From assembly GCA_000004985.1 (NCBI GenBank), contig GG738859.1: a stretch of 64,000 nucleotides of DNA; one strand, 5' to 3'. Below, in pieces: positions 3,704 through 59,566 of this stretch. The DNA is from Naegleria gruberi. Its lineage: Eukaryota. Numbering within the stretch: the stretch's first letter is position 1; every line of letters begins with the position of its first letter. The position numbers and the translations under genes are program-made. The notes beneath the pieces were generated by a model. The model was given only the letters and a program-made list of their open reading frames with translations, was not told the origin of the DNA and did not search any database.

Positions 3704-4036
3704 TTTTGAATTATTCAACTGTTATTACTATTAAATATTTGTTGATGAGTTATATGTTGTCGATGTTTGATGATTCTCAAAACACCCAATACTAACGACT
3801 AACTTGGGATTGGAGTGGTTTTAAACGAGCAACACGCGTAGATTTGCACAATTTAAATATTTTTTTCAAATTTGTAACGGTAAATAATAATTGCCAATTG
3901 TGTTAAATACTAATAATATTATTGTTTTGAATTATTACTTAAATATTCGTTTTATTTTATAATAAACAATAATTTACATTTCTAACATTAACTTCTTGCG
4001 TTGTCAATAATATTATTATTTGAAACAGTCTAAAAA

Positions 4037-5214
4037 ATGATCTCATCATCAAATGCAAAAAACGAAGATAGTGCCTCTTCGGAACTTCCTCTCCCAACAC
4101 CATCATTAGATTCATCATTCAAAAAGAAGGTTGTGGAGAGAAATTGGCTCAACCAAGAATCTGAAGGAATTGATGCTTTAGCAAAGATTGAATTTCTTCA
4201 TACAATTCCAGGAGAGAAACAATTAAAATTTGTACCAAGTGTAAAGGGCATATTAACCAATGCTGTTCACAAAATGGCACTTCAACTCACTCAACAACAG
4301 GATGAAATTATCAATGAAGCAATGAATTTTTCTGCAACTAGTTTGATTACACAAAGTGGATCTAAAGCCATGCTCATGTCAAATGCTGTTGGAGCTGCGG
4401 AAGAACAACACAGAGGATCAATATTTGTTAGTTTGAGTAATGCATCTGATTTTGATCCGAATATGGGATTTGATGCTATTAAATCCAAGTTAACAAAGAC
4501 TAATAGTATTATCACAAAGGATATTCAGGAAATGTTTTTAAAATCAATTCCTCCTTGGAATTTTGTTACACCACACCATAACTGGAAAGTAAGACTACAT
4601 GGAGATAGAGCTGTTGGTAAAACAACTTTACAGAAGAGTCTTTGTAGAATGGGTAAGTGAAATAATTTTATTGTCAAATTTTTGACATTTGAAAGATACC
4701 AATATTGAACAACACAGAAATCAACATTGTGATACTGTTGGATCAATTACAACAAATACATTAATACCAATCAAATGTATTGATTCTGTGAAATGGATAG
4801 AGCTAGAAGTGATCGATGTTGGTGAAGGATGTGCTATCAATAATCCAATTTATAATTCATGTAAGTAATTTATATTAAGAATATCACTAATATACTTTGT
4901 TGGATCTATAACCAGACAATGTTAATGATTTTCATGCCCATCTAGTCTTATTTTCCATGGGACATTTTCAAAGCTTCAAGAATGCCAAAAACAAAATCAA
5001 ACAATTGAAAAAACAAACCAACAATATTATAGTTGTTGCAACTAAATCAGATGCTTTCCAAAATTTCCAAGTTACAGACATTGACATTGCCACTCTAGTG
5101 AAGGAATTTGATTTAAAGACTGCAGTATGTCTAGTCAATAGTCATGCTCAATTCGGATCTGAAAATAGTACCTATACCATTGTGGAAGAGTTGGCCGACT
5201 TACTTTTGGCCTAA
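4037..5214 (+). CDS. atypical small GTPase-like protein with ~175-aa N-terminal extension; 3 exons (4037..4652, 4696..4860, 4946..5214)
   Basis: Introns of 43 nt (gtaagtgaaat...tttgaaag) and 85 nt (gtaagtaattt...cactaat...catctag) restore one frame. G-motifs present: G1 GDRAVGKTT, G3 DVGEG, G4 TKSD (for NKxD), G5 NSHA. The track shows the exons as separate ORFs 4037..4660 and 4957..5214. Confidence 0.5.
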
Positions 5215-34111: not shown

Positions 34112-35467
34112 TTAATGGTGGTTAATATCTTTACATTTAGAACAGAGGCAGTGAACTGGACCAATATGTTTAGCAATACAGAGGTCAGCTGGGTGAGACT
34201 TTCTTGATTCCAAATAATCATTTACAAAGTCTTCAATCTTTTGCTTACTGACATTAGGCATGACAATACAGTGAGCAACAGTTCCTTCACAGGCAAGTTG
34301 CCACTTCTTGACAAATTCCTCATCCATTGGTCGTTCCAAAACAATTGTATTTGAGTGATCGTTCAATAAGCATCCAACTCCGGCTTCTTTCAATAATTTG
34401 ATCATGTACTTGGCATTTTCTAAACACTTTCTGGCATCTGAGGCAAATCCTTCAGTTCCCTTCTTTCTCAAAGTCAACCACAAGTATAAAGAAGCTTGTC
34501 CATTTCTTGAACCCATGATAGTGGTATCAACACTGTTAAGATAATCAATGTGACTCTTCAATGTTTCAACATATCTCTTTCTAGTAATTGTGACACCACA
34601 TGGCATTGGACAACCCATAAATTTGTGACCAGAAACTGAAATTGAACCAATTGGCTTGGTAAAGTTAACTTCGAGAGCTTCTTCAATAAATGGCAAAATC
34701 AAAGCAAACAATGCACCATCACAGTGAATGAAGAATTCATCTTCAGTGTATCCAGTTCTCTTGAAAATTTCCAAAATTGTATCCAAGTTATCAACTGCAC
34801 CTTTAACAGTTGTACCAATGTTAACGTTCATAACAATTGGTCTCTTCTTCTTTCCGATAGATAAATCTTCAGTTTCAACTCTATTCTTAATCAATTCTTG
34901 TTCAAAGATTGCATAATCAATTTCACCAGTGAAAAGTGTTGGAACTCTAATTTCTGGCATTCTGTACAATTTGGCAGCCTTAGATACAGAGTAGTGAGAT
35001 TCACGTGAGGAAACCAAAACAGCATCTGGGAATTGTTCTCTACCTAACAAGATACCATACAAATTACCTTCTGTTCCACAATTTGTGACATATCCCCAAT
35101 ATTCATCATGGCTCCAATTCTTGGTATTGTCCTTATCTTCACATGGACCAATTTTCCACAACTTGGCAAAGAATTCCAAAACAGATTGTTCAAAAGCTCT
35201 AGAGTGAACACCATAATTTGATTCAACAAAAGGATCACCCAAATTGTTAACTGAATAACGTAAGAATGGTGACAATTCTTCATGATTATAACTCAAATTG
35301 TAAGGATAACCAAAGTGGTGATAGGTTCTTTCTTCAATATGTTTCTTATATTGATCGAGAATATCTTGTGTTGAGAGATTTTCATTTATGACAAAGTTGA
35401 AATTCTTATCAACGATTTGTGGACCATTGGTTGAAGTGCTATTACTGTTAGTTGTTGTTGATTCCAT
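34112..35467 (-). CDS. PLP-dependent group II decarboxylase of the serine decarboxylase / bacterial-type histidine decarboxylase subfamily
   Basis: ATG 35465-35467; single exon of 451 aa. HFGYPYNLSYNHEELSPFLRYSVNNLGDPF...GYVTNCGTEGNLYGILLGRE...ISVSGHKFMGCPMPCGVTITRKRYVE (PLP-Lys in S-G-HK-F). The overall layout matches plant SDC and Gram-negative HDC rather than animal DDC/HDC. Confidence 0.8.
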   Translation of the reverse strand: MESTTTNSNSTSTNGPQIVDKNFNFVINENLSTQDILDQYKKHIEERTYHHFGYPYNLSYNHEELSPFLRYSVNNLGDPFVESNYGVHSRAFEQSVLEFFAKLWKIGPCEDKDNTKNWSHDEYWGYVTNCGTEGNLYGILLGREQFPDAVLVSSRESHYSVSKAAKLYRMPEIRVPTLFTGEIDYAIFEQELIKNRVETEDLSIGKKKRPIVMNVNIGTTVKGAVDNLDTILEIFKRTGYTEDEFFIHCDGALFALILPFIEEALEVNFTKPIGSISVSGHKFMGCPMPCGVTITRKRYVETLKSHIDYLNSVDTTIMGSRNGQASLYLWLTLRKKGTEGFASDARKCLENAKYMIKLLKEAGVGCLLNDHSNTIVLERPMDEEFVKKWQLACEGTVAHCIVMPNVSKQKIEDFVNDYLESRKSHPADLCIAKHIGPVHCLCSKCKDINHH

Positions 35468-36444: not shown

Positions 36445-36993
36445 ATGAACGTAAGATCAATCTTGACTGTCCTCGTTGTGTTGCTCGTCGCCGTATGCTA
36501 CTTGCATGGTGTCACTGCCATCAAACCACAAGCCAAAATGGCAGGTGTCAAGGAATTGAACAGAAATAACTTTAAATCATTTGTTAAGAATAATGAAAAT
36601 ATTCTTGTTGAATTCTATGCTCCAGTATGTTATCAAAAATTATTCGGATGAAAATTCTAAATATCTTGTTGTTATTACACTTTCAATATTTCTAATATTT
36701 TATTGGAATACAAATATTCGAAATTTGATATTTGATGAAACTAATACAAATAGTGGTGTTATTATTCTAAGGAATTCGCTAATGAAATGAAGAAGCTCGG
36801 TAAGATGAAATTGTCAGGTGTCAAGGTTGCCAAGATCAATGGTGACAAGTTCTCTGGTATTGCCAGAAAGTACAAGGTTGATGGTTTCCCATCTATTTTG
36901 TTGATCAAGAATGGTGAAGCTGTTGAATACAAGGGTGTTCAAAACACTGCTAGAAAGGTCAGACAATTCGTCAAGAAGAATATTTCTGCTTAA
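36445..36993 (+). CDS. secreted/ER thioredoxin-fold (PDI-like) protein with CxxS active site (WCYYS); 2 exons (36445..36624, 36754..36993), 129-nt intron
   Basis: Signal peptide MNVRSILTVLVVLLVAVCYLHGVTA. Exon 1 ends ...NILVEFYAP. The intron gtatgttatc...aactaatacaaatag splits the active-site motif. Exon 2 begins WCYYSKEFANEMKKLG...VDGFPSILLIKNGEAVEYKG. This matches the Trx/PDI a-domain (EFYAPWCGHCK...GFPTI) with the second Cys replaced by Ser. Confidence 0.65.
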
Positions 36994-37125: not shown

Positions 37126-37198
37126 GCCGACATAGCTCAGTTGGGAGAGCGTAAGACTGAAGATCTTAAGGTCCCTGGTTCGATCCCTGGTGTCGGCA
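37126..37198 (+). tRNA. tRNA-Phe (anticodon GAA), 73 nt, no intron
   Basis: GCCGACATAGCTCAGTTGGGAGAGCGTAAGACTGAAGATCTTAAGGTCCCTGGTTCGATCCCTGGTGTCGGCA. It folds as a cloverleaf and is near-identical to metazoan-type tRNA-Phe (recalled from memory). There is one U-U mismatch in the T stem. A TTTT terminator lies 3-6 nt downstream. Confidence 0.9.
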
Positions 37199-49597: not shown

Positions 49598-49670
49598 TCC
49601 CCCTTAGCTCAGTCGGTAGAGCGTCAGACTGTTAATCTGCAGGTCGGTGGTTCGAGCCCACCAGGGGGAG
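49598..49670 (+). tRNA. tRNA-Asn (anticodon GTT), 73 nt, bacterial/organellar-like sequence type
   Basis: TCCCCCTTAGCTCAGTCGGTAGAGCGTCAGACTGTTAATCTGCAGGTCGGTGGTTCGAGCCCACCAGGGGGAG. Cloverleaf with a 7-bp acceptor stem (U1-A72), D arm GCTCAGTCGGTAGAGC, anticodon loop CUGUUAA, T arm GGTGG/TTCGAGC/CCACC. There is one U-C mismatch at the top of the anticodon stem. TTTT lies 8 nt downstream. Confidence 0.75.
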
Positions 49671-57242: not shown

Positions 57243-57316
57243 TGCCTCCCTTGGGAATCGAACCCAAGACCTCTGTCTTACTAGGACAGCGCTACTGCCA
57301 ACTGAGCTAGGAAGGC
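57243..57316 (-). tRNA. tRNA-Thr (anticodon AGT), ~73 nt
   Basis: Reverse complement GCCTTCCTAGCTCAGTTGGCAGTAGCGCTGTCCTAGTAAGACAGAGGTCTTGGGTTCGATTCCCAAGGGAGGC. It has a 7-bp acceptor (one G-U), anticodon stem CTGTC/GACAG, loop CTAGTAA and T arm TTGGG/TTCGATT/CCCAA. The D-stem pairing was not resolved. An oligo-T terminator lies downstream on the minus strand. Confidence 0.85.
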
Positions 57317-57424: not shown

Positions 57425-59566
57425 TTATTTTTCTTTTCTCTTGGCCATCTTTCTGTCGAGGGCACCCAAAACTTTCTTTCTCAAACGAATATTCTTTGGT
57501 GTAACTTCAATAAGTTCATCTTGTTGGATATAAGTCAAAACTTCTTCCAATTGGAATACTCGAGGTGGAGATAATCTGATAGTATCTTCCTTACCTGCTG
57601 CTCTCATGTTAGTCAAGTGTTTTTCCTTACAAGGATTAACTTCAATATCATTTTCTCTACTGTGTTCACCAACAATCATACCTTCATAACATTCAGCTGA
57701 TGGATGAATGAAAATATTACCTCTAGCTTCAAGTGGACCTAAAGCATAAGGTGTACCTTTACCACCTTCAAGTGAAACCATGACACCCTTTCTAGTCTTT
57801 TCAATAGGTCCCTTGTATGGTTCATAATCACTGAAAATGTGAGTGAGCATACCTTCACCACGAGTATCAGTTCTGAATTCAGAAGCATAACCAATGAGAC
57901 CACGAGTTGGAACTCTATAAAGTAATTTAGCCTTAATACCATCAACCTTATAATCAATCATTTCACCCTTTCTCTTAGCAAGCTTTTCCATACATTGAGC
58001 AGCCAAACCATTATCAACATCAATTGTAACTTCTTCAATTGGTTCCAAAATATCATCCTTACCACCACCTTCAACATCCTTAAAGATGACTCTTGGAGGA
58101 GAAACTTGGAATTCATAACCTTCTCTTCTCATATTTTCAATAAGTACAGCCAATTGCATTTCACCACGACCCATAATTTCAAAAGCTTCACCCATTGGTT
58201 TAATTGTTAAACTGACGTTCATTTCAGCTTCCTTCAATAAACGAGCACGAAGTTGAGTTGCAGAACATAATTTACCTTCCTTACCAGCCAATGGACTGTC
58301 ATTGACAAGGAACATTACAGACAAAATTGGAGGATCAATTGGTTTAGCTTCAATTGGAGTTGTAACTTGTTTAACATCACAAACTGTATCAGTAACACTG
58401 GCCTTTGAAATACCAGCAATGGATACAATAGAACCAGATAAAGCTCTCTTTACAGGTGTTCTTTGCATACCAATTCTTTGCATGACTTGTAAAACTTTAC
58501 CTTCTTCTAAAACTTCACCAGTTCTACTCATAACTTTAACTCTATCACCTGGTTTAACGGCACCACCATACATTTTACCAGTAACAATTCTACCGAAAAT
58601 TCTATCATAATCAACTGTACTAACAAGCATTTGGAATGGACTTGCAGCAGATGGTCTAACTTTTGGACATGGAATATGTTCCAAAATTGCTTCAAAGATT
58701 GGAGCTGTATTCTTTCTTTCATCCTTTTCAAAATCTTTAACTGCCCAACCACTCTTGGCACTGGCATATAAAATTGGGAAATCCAATTGTTCATCATTAG
58801 CTCCCAAATCAATAAATAAGTCATAAACTTCATTTTCAACTTCACCTCCAATACGAGCAGTTTCACGATCTGATTTGTTGAAAATAACAATTGGTTTCAA
58901 TCCATGTTCTAAGGCCTTTCTCAAAACAAACTTTGTTTGAGCCATAACACCTTCAGTAGCATCAACAAGTAAACAAACACCATCAACCATTGACATGACT
59001 CTTTCCACTTCACCTGAAAAATCAGCATGTCCTGGAGTATCAACAATATTGATAATATATTCACCCTTATATTGAACTGATGTCAATTTAGCCATAATTG
59101 TAATACCTCTTTCCTTTTCCAAGTCCAAACTATCCATTGTACGTTCTTCAGCATCATCTTTAATTGTACCTGTTTGTTTTAATAAACAATCAATCATTGT
59201 TGTTTTACCTGTATCGACGTGAGCAATAATTGCCAAGTTACGAATATTCTTTACTGTGACAAATCCTTCGGAATCAGCTTCAGATTCAACTTGAGGAATA
59301 TCTAAAATATTGATATAATTGGATCCAGATAAATCAACTTTGGAATCATGTTGACGTAAATTTGAGGAGAAGAAACGTTCTTGTTGTTGGGAAAGTAATC
59401 TTTGTAAAAGAGAATGTTTTTGGAGGAGATTAGAGTGCTCAAAGTGGAACCCTTGTGAAAAAACAGATGAGGCAGCCCCGATACAAGGTTTTGACTGTGA
59501 TGATGAAGAAGCAATCTTCCTGACGATACGACTACCACTGGCGACAAGGTTTTTAGAGTTGAGCAT
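57425..59566 (-). CDS. typA: BipA/TypA translational GTPase (bacterial type) with ~110-aa N-terminal organellar targeting-like extension
   Basis: 713 aa, single exon. [29 protein letters not shown]...[83 protein letters not shown]... plus the BipA-specific C-terminal domain (...[42 protein letters not shown]...). The N-terminal [27 protein letters not shown]... is Ser/Arg-rich and presequence-like. Confidence 0.85.

Follow-up and report, generated by a model that had tools for sequence, protein, structure and literature searches.

A probable plant-type L-serine decarboxylase gene of Naegleria gruberi belongs to an old, eukaryote-wide family

We analysed a window of 64,000 nucleotides from Naegleria gruberi (contig GG738859.1 of assembly GCA_000004985.1) and found that it carries, on its minus strand, an intact gene for a group II PLP decarboxylase that, judged by its sequence, is most likely a serine decarboxylase (SDC) rather than a histidine decarboxylase (HDC). 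The gene is a largely ordinary member of a single, old, eukaryote-wide SDC family. Sequence comparisons indicate that it did not come from bacteria in recent times and that its vertical descent reaches back at least to the ancestor shared by Naegleria and Willaertia. We consider it probable that the open reading frame (ORF) encodes a functional, PLP-dependent L-serine decarboxylase of the plant type (EC 4.1.1.-), predicted to be cytosolic and homodimeric. The gene has the following features.

34112..35467, minus strand: complete single-exon SDC coding sequence, an ATG-to-stop ORF of 451 aa plus stop, for a putative plant-type L-serine decarboxylase (group II PLP decarboxylase)
34850..34879, minus strand: 30 in-frame coding bases (gtt…aag, VETEDLSIGK, aa 197-206) spliced out as an intron by the public N. 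gruberi model
35300..35308, minus strand: Y54-P55-Y56, putative substrate-pocket motif, from a gap-free alignment with 8jg7; Tyr56 corresponds to AtSerDC Tyr111
34622..34633, minus strand: S279-G280-H281-K282, the predicted PLP Schiff-base lysine and phosphate-binding His, invariant in the alignments; K282 corresponds to AtSerDC Lys314
34541..34543, minus strand: Y309, predicted catalytic-loop tyrosine, from a gap-free block with 8jg7; corresponds to AtSerDC Tyr341 and is invariant in alignments A1 and A2
34133..34180, minus strand: putative C-terminal zinc knuckle C430-x9-C440-x-C442-x2-C445, from the motif table and alignment, with the metal ligands predicted from their spacing
35108..35149, minus strand: Naegleria-specific insertion G107-H120 (GPCEDKDNTKNWSH), from alignments A1 and A2

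The first-pass annotation of this DNA had placed the gene at exactly this span, and the frame indeed runs from ATG to stop without interruption; the strand, which that annotation did not give, is minus. Its description of a protist-like nuclear genome also fits: the window protein is identical to the public N. gruberi protein P0001, labelled only 'predicted protein', apart from a 10-residue gap in the P0001 model, and its neighbours are typical eukaryotic genes (Tim17 family, CH-domain, cyclophilin, SMC, Tsr1 and CCDC22). The single-exon structure that it reported holds for the window ORF and is shared by the N. fowleri ortholog and by those on two further Naegleria contigs. Synteny with N. 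fowleri was not conserved, the immediate neighbours being different, which is evidence neither way.

The 10 residues missing from P0001 are exactly aa 197-206. The corresponding DNA opens with GT and closes with AG. Other Naegleria orthologs retain the segment in frame, and its 5' end reads GAG in N. fowleri and GAA in P0004, leaving no GT donor. Between N. gruberi and P0002, the segment showed two synonymous and zero non-synonymous changes. These comparisons indicate that 34850..34879 is coding, that the intron in the public gene model is wrong and that the 30 bases should be restored.

Orthologs were present in three other Naegleria sequences (including N. fowleri) and in Willaertia; among further Discoba, the euglenid Ploeotia and Diplonema carry the gene. 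Measured against the three Naegleria orthologs, dN/dS was 0.06-0.16, with dS of 0.7-1.95. The gene is intact and under purifying selection.

The protein matched Pfam family PF00282 (1.4e-21). Its best sequence match was 8jg7, the solved Arabidopsis serine decarboxylase (AtSerDC), which aligned end to end over aa 24-444 with an E value of 1.8e-145. Bacterial HDC matched at 1e-76, and animal-type DDC and GAD chains at only 1e-9 to 1e-10; the match to DOPA decarboxylase (E 7e-9) was confined to aa 145-359. The AF2 model of the window protein (pLDDT 79, pTM 0.80) likewise had 8jg7 as its best fold match (TM 0.80/0.88, rmsd 2.4 Å). The earlier assignment to the branch of SDC and Gram-negative HDC, and not to the animal DDC-like enzymes, was thus correct, as was the PLP site on which it relied: S-V-S-G-H-K-F is present at aa 277-283, with K282 as the PLP lysine.

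AtSerDC (8JG7; the Rontein-type plant SDC) and the tea enzymes CsSerDC and CsAlaDC (8JIJ, 8JIK) aligned with the Naegleria protein over their full length at 50-57% identity, and AtSerDC has in common with it the fold, the PLP-binding and catalytic residues and the motif G-Y-P-Y-N-L. The plant enzymes differ from it in having an N-terminal extension of ~60-110 residues, where the Naegleria protein has 23 low-complexity residues, and in lacking two Naegleria-specific insertions, aa 107-120 and 197-206; CsAlaDC differs further in carrying Phe at the specificity position. We found no counterpart of the insertion G107-H120 in Willaertia, other eukaryotic SDCs or bacterial homologs in alignments A1 and A2, and the 10-residue block aa 111-120 within it had a mean pLDDT of 54. 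The HDC of Photobacterium phosphoreum (7ERU/7ERV) belongs to the same subfamily, with the same fold, the S-G-H-K PLP site and 36-38% identity, but Gram-negative HDC has Y-P-E in place of Y-P-Y, runs to about 375 aa and has no C-terminal zinc knuckle. Animal DDC-like HDC and the aromatic amino-acid decarboxylases also fall in the PF00282 superfamily and use PLP chemistry but are remote, with E about 1e-9 across about 215 residues and 16-19% identity in the fold search.

In AtSerDC, the cofactor is held by Lys314, His313, Asp282, Ala284, His201, Thr252, Gly174/Thr175 and Ser352, Tyr341 in the catalytic loop is essential for activity, and Tyr111, the third residue of the YPX motif, selects serine (PMC11407765). 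Mapped through gap-free blocks, K282, H281, D250, A252, H158, T220, G131/T132, S320 and Y309 of the Naegleria protein were all kept. The site S279-K282 was invariant in alignments A2 and A3, and Y309 lies within a flexible loop, 309-320, whose low pLDDT is as expected. YPY was present in all eukaryotic sequences of the first tree set (31/31); elsewhere, the third residue of the motif varied, with YPE in the bacterial HDC 7erv and YPV in Pedobacter-type proteins.

Earlier descriptions treat SDC as plant-specific and regard its zinc finger as peculiar to the two crystallised plant enzymes. The Naegleria knuckle has the 1/11/13/16 spacing of the plant Cys3His finger, with Cys replacing His, and would bind zinc through four cysteines. 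The plant finger is a 17-residue loop with three Cys and one His (PMC11407765). This Cys4 variant is common to Heterolobosea, Ploeotia, P0007, P0026 and Amoebidium, streptophytes having Cys3His. That heteroloboseans, a euglenid and an ichthyosporean all carry the knuckle speaks for an old origin within eukaryotes. The knuckle was absent from every bacterial homolog examined. It was also missing from the SDCs of chlorophytes, ochrophytes, Mayorella and Diplonema and thus does not define the whole SDC clade.

The first-pass annotation had left the substrate as serine or histidine. The serine part stood and the histidine part did not, in view of the YPY motif, the zinc knuckle and the placement in the eukaryotic SDC clade. 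A histamine-producing HDC is what UniRef and NCBIfam-style names would suggest: the window protein scored 426.8 bits against the NF002748 'histidine decarboxylase' equivalog (cut-off 305), UniRef names P0003, the N. fowleri ortholog, and many other clade members histidine decarboxylase, and the fold and level of identity to the Photobacterium enzyme are those given above. However, NF002748 is non-discriminating, since it gave the proven AtSerDC 466.5 bits and a true HDC 595.3, and thus cannot separate SDC from HDC activity. The pocket motif is that of SDC and not the G-Y-P-E-S of HDC, the knuckle is specific to SDC relative to HDC, and the protein fell in the eukaryotic SDC clade with at least 99% support, far from HDC. 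In addition, Arabidopsis SDC is described as highly specific for L-serine (PMC3317708). We therefore regard the histidine reading as very unlikely.

Tea AlaDC evolved from SDC. A comparable shift, by which the Naegleria enzyme would decarboxylate alanine, threonine, cysteine or a similar small amino acid instead of or besides serine, also seems improbable to us, if a little less so than histidine. Tyr111Phe alone opens alanine activity in the plant family, the Naegleria protein has the two insertions of its own lineage (aa 107-120 and 197-206), and the bacterial YPY proteins nearest to it are uncharacterised; yet the determinant is Tyr and not Phe, G-Y-P-Y-N-L is identical to that of AtSerDC, and the motif was invariant in every eukaryotic SDC examined. 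Serine is thus the substrate suggested by one specificity residue together with clade membership. Within this clade, the 'histidine decarboxylase' labels that N. fowleri and numerous protist and algal proteins carry are unreliable, and the evidence points to serine decarboxylase. Our literature search found no paper on serine decarboxylase in Naegleria.

To place the gene, we used neighbour-joining trees only, bootstrapped with five kinds of distance or site treatment: p, Poisson, Kimura, gamma (a = 1 and 0.5) and slow sites. All eukaryotic sequences formed one clade with 99-100% bootstrap support in every treatment, and within it the Heterolobosea, comprising the four Naegleria sequences and Willaertia, were recovered at 92-100%. 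Profile scores lay at 656-672 bits for eukaryotic SDC, the figure of 666 standing against 478 in the closest bacterial group and 330 in the one after it. The closest prokaryotes reached 44-51% identity, versus 55-64% for other eukaryotes. An exhaustive HMMER search gave eukaryotic sequences as its top nameable clusters (diatom, Diplonema, grasses and Raphidocelis at 54-55% and 52%, and Picocystis at 43%), and the best bacterium-sized protein in that search was 51% identical.

The nearest prokaryotic relatives were YPY decarboxylases of cyanobacteria, Chloroflexota, Parachlamydiaceae and Eremiobacterota (L001-L025 and P0132). They share YPY with eukaryotic SDC and join it in a clade of 100% support, outside which the Gram-negative HDCs were placed, but they are about 365-385 aa long, have neither N-terminal extension nor zinc knuckle and fall outside the eukaryotic clade. 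Gene context among these relatives independently favours the serine reading. Two cyanobacterial YPY copies adjoin a gene for a transporter resembling ethanolamine permeases (TIGR00908, 341 bits). The gene for the sister sequence P0132 lies 17 bp downstream of a cytidylyltransferase-like gene, on a contig with about 50% GC and compact genes. Against a phage collection, P0132 matched only Acinetobacter-phage hdc genes, at 39.6% identity.

Horizontal acquisition had been considered plausible in the first-pass annotation, on the strength of a patchy eukaryotic distribution, with the lack of introns taken as consistent but not diagnostic. The patchiness is real: T. brucei has no SDC homolog and kinetoplastids are without the gene (PMC5413845). 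Apicomplexan SDC is known as an activity with no gene assigned to it (PMC6071779, PMC5413845), and the Plasmodium comparison proposed in the first-pass annotation thus had no sequence to draw on. A transfer from bacteria into Naegleria or a recent ancestor would accord with this patchy distribution, with the intron-free gene and with the embedding of the eukaryotic clade in the bacterial YPY group; we nevertheless judge it extremely improbable. Eukaryotes were monophyletic at no less than 99% in all treatments, the gene is nested within that clade with orthologs across related taxa, throughout Naegleria and in Willaertia, which is largely what the first-pass annotation had named as refuting its idea, and the best prokaryote, at 49-51% identity, is more distant than even remote eukaryotes at 55-64%. 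The zinc knuckle is held in common with eukaryotes only. Codon usage and GC3, proposed earlier as a check for foreign origin, proved native: GC3 was 0.297 versus 0.264±0.042 in the neighbouring genes, CAI was 0.806 versus 0.733±0.049 and RSCU lay inside the neighbour range, so that none of these measures gave a compositional signal of transfer relative to the neighbours. Because eukaryotes are embedded among the bacterial YPY group, it is plausible that the eukaryotic family as a whole came from bacteria in the distant past.

Clearly more credible, though still unlikely in our view, is that the heterolobosean ancestor received the gene from another eukaryote, such as prey or an alga, rather than from a discoban or early eukaryotic ancestor. 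Under none of four distance models were Discoba (Heterolobosea plus the euglenid) monophyletic in any replicate (0/200 for each model). Heterolobosea instead joined Mayorella and P0026 weakly (54-57%), and Euglenozoa grouped with ochrophytes (54%). The SDC family has at least one clear incongruent placement, Amoebidium falling inside Chloroplastida with 100% support, and the absence from kinetoplastids points the same way. Against this, no donor lineage was supported, with deep nodes all below 60%, and poor resolution is to be expected of a single gene at such depth; the gene occurs in three Discoba lineages, and the Cys4 form of the knuckle, which streptophytes do not have, links Heterolobosea with Ploeotia, P0007, P0026 and Amoebidium. 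Since Discoba were never monophyletic in the gene tree, we limit vertical descent to Heterolobosea and make no claim of greater depth. On its contig, P0026 adjoins a second decarboxylase gene.

By analogy with the plant enzyme, serine would form an external aldimine with the PLP held on K282, Tyr56 of Y-P-Y selecting its hydroxymethyl side chain. The aldimine would then be decarboxylated, and Tyr309 of the mobile loop would protonate the quinonoid intermediate, with release of ethanolamine and CO2; the C-terminal Cys4 zinc knuckle would stabilise the fold. Ethanolamine may then pass through the CDP-ethanolamine (Kennedy) pathway to phosphatidylethanolamine (PE) and its derivatives. SDC would in this way supply free-living and pathogenic Naegleria with de novo ethanolamine upstream of that pathway. 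Later enzymes of the pathway are reported from N. gruberi, whose set comprises Ect/Pct, Ept/Cpt, Pem, Pss and Psd (PMC5573378).

In a proteomic study of N. fowleri, a protein best matching the tomato SDC-family 'HDC' P54772 showed increases of 2.9x and 8.2x in highly pathogenic trophozoites, and this 'histidine decarboxylase' was among 22 candidate pathogenicity factors (PMC4082629). Going by its best-hit label, the entry is presumably the ortholog of Naegleria SDC. We tentatively propose, as an idea with somewhat less than even prospects, that this pathogenicity-factor candidate is a plant-type SDC, that Naegleria makes its own ethanolamine, and that the Cys4 zinc-knuckle SDC is ancient, occurring in Discoba, Ichthyosporea and streptophytes, and has been lost many times rather than being 'plant-unique'. 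To our knowledge, humans have no route of serine-to-ethanolamine decarboxylation. If the proposal is true, SDC would be a candidate for selective drug targeting in primary amoebic meningoencephalitis. The annotation, metabolic, evolutionary and gene-model points change no paradigm. Psd and Pss give N. gruberi other routes to PE (PMC5573378).

The unbroken ORF at 34112–35467 (minus strand, ATG to stop) encodes a 451-amino-acid (aa) protein that carries the motif S-V-S-G-H-K-F at aa 277–283 and matches Pfam PF00282 (pyridoxal-dependent decarboxylase) at 1.4e-21. A search of all Protein Data Bank (PDB) sequences returned Arabidopsis serine decarboxylase (SDC; AtSerDC, 8jg7) as the top match (E 1.8e-145, aa 24–444), followed by tea alanine decarboxylase (CsAlaDC, 8jij/8jik; 1.6e-137), Photobacterium histidine decarboxylase (HDC, 7erv/7eru; about 1e-76), and Streptomyces methionine decarboxylase (about 4e-33). 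For animal GAD and DDC the values were only about 1e-9 to 1e-10. The PF00282 match and this order confirm the first-pass annotation's description of a pyridoxal-dependent decarboxylase of the SDC/bacterial-HDC type, not the animal DDC-like type. Because the 8jg7 alignment has long gap-free blocks, the residue roles reported for AtSerDC and CsAlaDC (PMC11407765) could be mapped directly.

Active-site residues, AtSerDC equivalents, and roles (PMC11407765 and the 8jg7 alignment)
K282, Lys314: PLP Schiff base
H281, His313: phosphate binding
D250, Asp282: PLP N1
A252 and H158, Ala284 and His201: ring stacking
T220, Thr252: PLP O3
G131 and T132, Gly174 and Thr175: phosphate binding
S320, Ser352* (adjacent subunit): phosphate binding
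Y309, Tyr341: essential mobile-loop Tyr
Y56, Tyr111 (Y-P-X motif): substrate specificity

The third Y-P-X residue sets activity, with Tyr specifying serine and Phe alanine (PMC11407765). The protein reads G-Y-P-Y-N-L, as does AtSerDC, whereas bacterial HDC has G-Y-P-E-S, and G-Y-P-V is found in the group of Pedobacter, Paraburkholderia, and Variovorax. The C-terminus, C430-x9-C440-x-C442-x2-C445, shares the 1/11/13/16 spacing of the plant zinc knuckle (C-x9-C-x-C-x2-H), although its fourth ligand is Cys; judging from this spacing, the four cysteines are putative metal ligands. We modelled the fold with AlphaFold2 from an alignment of 31 sequences (pLDDT 79, pTM 0.80); confidence was low only at the N-terminal 20 residues, the dimer-interface/active-site segments 55–58 and 75–79, and the mobile loop 309–320. 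The best PDB fold match of the model was 8jg7 (TM 0.80/0.88, rmsd 2.4 Å), with AlaDC second and bacterial HDC third. By every sequence-level criterion tested, the protein belongs to the plant-type SDC family; what sets it apart is a Cys4 knuckle, a pair of lineage-specific loops, and the absence of a long N-terminal extension. Our literature search found no paper linking serine decarboxylase and Naegleria, and for Plasmodium SDC, which the first-pass annotation proposed for comparison, no gene has been identified (PMC6071779, PMC5413845). We regard the protein as an uncharacterised, partly misannotated member of a known family.

UniRef applies the name "Histidine decarboxylase" to the N. fowleri ortholog and to many relatives from algae and plants, and our protein scored 426.8 bits against the NCBIfam equivalog NF002748 (histidine decarboxylase; cut-off 305). 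As a control, AtSerDC, a biochemically proven and crystallised serine decarboxylase (PMC11407765), scored 466.5 bits and a true HDC 595.3 bits. Passing NF002748 therefore cannot tell HDC from SDC, and this equivalog is a likely source of the systematic misnaming of SDC-clade proteins in our match list. Pocket motif, putative zinc knuckle, and phylogeny all favour SDC over HDC.

Both the annotation and the gene model of the Naegleria enzyme needed correcting. The best database match, a "predicted protein" of N. gruberi (P0001, 441 aa), is identical except for a 10-residue internal gap, corresponding to this segment:

34850–34879, minus strand: gtt…aag, 30 nt in frame with a GT start and AG end, encoding VETEDLSIGK (aa 197–206), absent from P0001

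The segment is kept in frame in the other Naegleria sequences. It opens with GAG in N. fowleri and GAA in the homolog P0004, so neither has a splice donor there, and N. gruberi and the homolog P0002 differ across it by two synonymous and zero non-synonymous changes. Together, these observations show that the segment is coding and that the public 30-nt "intron" is an artefact, plausibly caused by the absence of this loop from plant SDCs. A further Naegleria-specific insertion lies at aa 107–120. In ortholog DNA from N. fowleri (L067) and two Naegleria-like contigs (L066 and L068), each SDC gene is one uninterrupted ORF. Among the Naegleria orthologs, dN/dS was 0.06–0.16 and dS 0.7–1.95 (Nei–Gojobori), indicating strong purifying selection.

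The first-pass annotation considered horizontal acquisition plausible. The identity to P0001 and the ordinary eukaryotic neighbours of the gene establish the window (GC 31–38%) as Naegleria nuclear DNA, not a contaminant.

Other features of the window
Other long ORFs: Tim17/22/23 family; four-CH-domain fimbrin-like protein; cyclophilin; LRR protein; SMC; protein kinase; CENP-C-like; Tsr1; CCDC22; macro domain; TypA/BipA
37126–37198, plus strand: tRNA-Phe (GAA), intergenic, between the SDC gene and the Tim17-family gene
49598–49670, plus strand: tRNA-Asn (GTT), intergenic
57243–57316, minus strand: tRNA-Thr (AGT), intergenic

Adjacent ORFs at 36445–36651 and 36787–36993 (plus strand) look like a two-exon gene for a small secreted protein with a thioredoxin fold, with a signal-peptide-like N-terminus and …FYAP.C… in the first, …DGFPSILLIKNGE… in the second, and an intron of about 135 nt between; introns thus do occur in genes near SDC. 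The tRNA-Thr gene adjoins that of a full-length translational GTPase of the TypA/BipA type (57425–59566, minus strand; domains GTP_EFTU, EFG_C, and BipA_C), typically a bacterial or organellar protein. No local synteny around SDC was found between the window and N. fowleri (L067), the flanking genes being wholly different (Tim17, CH-domain, and LRR versus Aminotran_5, kinesin, ADH, and an RRM protein).

Compared with the window ORFs, the SDC gene showed no compositional anomaly of the kind a foreign origin might leave: GC3 was 0.297 versus 0.264 ± 0.042 in 27 other long ORFs, the RSCU correlation with pooled neighbours was a typical 0.90, and CAI was 0.806 versus 0.733 ± 0.049, at the well-adapted end. 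Its closest database matches were four Naegleria sequences (84–98% identity) and Willaertia magna (60%). Every other named match among the best 120 was eukaryotic (Mayorella, diatoms, Triparma, green algae, and land plants; 50–61% identity), with no bacterial name; by cluster look-up, P0014 comes from the euglenid Ploeotia vitrea, P0009 from the ichthyosporean Amoebidium, and P0129 from Diplonema ambulator. In prokaryotes, a motif-seeded scan covering 185,579 genomes placed the closest relatives at 44–49% identity (Gloeocapsa and other cyanobacteria, Limnocylindrales/Chloroflexota, Parachlamydiaceae, and Eremiobacterota), followed by Nostoc (about 42%) and Pedobacter, Paraburkholderia, and Variovorax (37–40%). 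A Parachlamydiaceae MAG has a tandem pair, in which another PLP-decarboxylase paralog of greater divergence (L007:1–849, plus strand) immediately precedes the YPY decarboxylase on its upstream side. Because the motif-seeded scan is biased towards SDC-like motifs, we also searched 1.84 billion cluster representatives exhaustively with HMMER and obtained 423 clusters with E ≤ 1e-30. The top-scoring nameable clusters were eukaryotic (Stauroneis, Diplonema, grasses, and Raphidocelis at 54–55% and 52%; Picocystis at 43%), and the best bacterium-sized protein was P0132 (383 aa, 51% identity).

We built neighbour-joining (NJ) trees (200–300 bootstraps, 373 columns) from 31 eukaryotic and 19 prokaryotic sequences plus Photobacterium HDC. 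All eukaryotes formed one clade (99.7–100%), within which the four Naegleria sequences and Willaertia grouped at 97%; eukaryotes and YPY bacteria united at 100%, with YPV bacteria and HDC outside. By NJ, P0132 was sister to all eukaryotic SDCs (98%). Trees from p, Poisson, and gamma (a = 1 and 0.5) distances and from slow sites only recovered eukaryotes at 99–100% and Heterolobosea at 92–100%, and both nodes reached 100% without distant outgroups. Against profiles of eukaryotic SDCs from which Heterolobosea had been left out, the protein scored 666–672 bits; the YPY-bacterial profile gave it 478 and the YPV profile 330, and trimming the zinc tail did not change the results.

This eukaryotic nesting, together with orthologs in the related Naegleria and Willaertia, is the pattern that the first-pass annotation named as refuting horizontal acquisition, and it argues against a bacterial donor or a recent event; we do not regard the N. 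gruberi SDC as a case of horizontal transfer. The eukaryotic family as a whole probably derives from one ancient bacterial YPY-type gene, with the knuckle added early. Branching order within eukaryotes is poorly resolved: Chloroplastida plus Amoebidium received 100%, all other eukaryotes 75%, Heterolobosea plus the homolog P0026 54% (57% with Mayorella added), and Ploeotia, P0007, and Diplonema with ochrophytes about 54%; a clade of Heterolobosea and euglenids received 0%. T. brucei has no homolog (PMC5413845), so losses of SDC have occurred. The gene tree fits vertical descent in Discoba and an old eukaryote-to-eukaryote transfer into Heterolobosea alike; we consider such a transfer unlikely.

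Heterolobosea, Ploeotia, P0007, P0026, and Amoebidium share the Cys4 form of the knuckle, and streptophytes have the Cys3His form; among the sequences examined, chlorophytes, ochrophytes, Mayorella, Diplonema, and all bacteria have no knuckle. The "plant-unique" zinc-finger SDC thus appears to extend to several protist lineages. The Amoebidium parasiticum (Ichthyosporea) protein P0009, with Cys4 and not Cys3His, nests inside Chloroplastida adjoining Pyramimonas (100%), which could reflect alga-to-opisthokont transfer or transcriptome contamination. At L062 (2601–3810, minus strand, beside 3918–5174, plus strand), P0026 is flanked, in divergent orientation, by another PF00282 gene whose call is split in two. 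P0026 has Phe in place of the catalytic-loop Tyr (…KEFHSND…) and so may be an inactive or altered paralog.

The predicted SDC would decarboxylate serine to ethanolamine. Its N-terminus is short and acidic or neutral with no obvious targeting signal, which suggests a cytosolic location. Reported N. gruberi lipid enzymes (ethanolamine/choline-phosphate cytidylyltransferase, ethanolamine/choline phosphotransferase, PE methyltransferases, PS synthase, and PS decarboxylase; PMC5573378) offer a candidate pathway for the product to enter. In N. fowleri proteomics, a protein whose best match was the tomato SDC-family "HDC" P54772 rose 2.91-fold and 8.22-fold under two highly pathogenic culture conditions and was one of 22 candidate pathogenicity factors (PMC4082629). 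We infer that this protein is the SDC ortholog. To our knowledge, humans have no SDC enzyme; one that they seem to lack would thus be apparently up-regulated in virulent N. fowleri.

Among the closest homologs of eukaryotic SDC, two cyanobacterial YPY decarboxylases (on L006 and L001) each adjoin an APC permease (L006:2–1303, plus strand; L001:3–875, minus strand) whose best match is TIGR00908 "ethanolamine permease" (340.7 bits, incomplete at the locus edge). These permeases share 64% identity, and the arrangement suggests a bacterial serine-decarboxylase/ethanolamine-transport pair. P0132 has the following neighbour on L069, a compact contig of about 50% GC that also carries a gametolysin-like peptidase M11 gene near P0132:

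L069:171–626, plus strand: cytidylyltransferase-like gene, 151 aa (PF01467/TIGR00125)
L069:643–1794, plus strand: P0132, 383 aa, YPY, without a zinc tail, 17 bp downstream of the cytidylyltransferase-like gene
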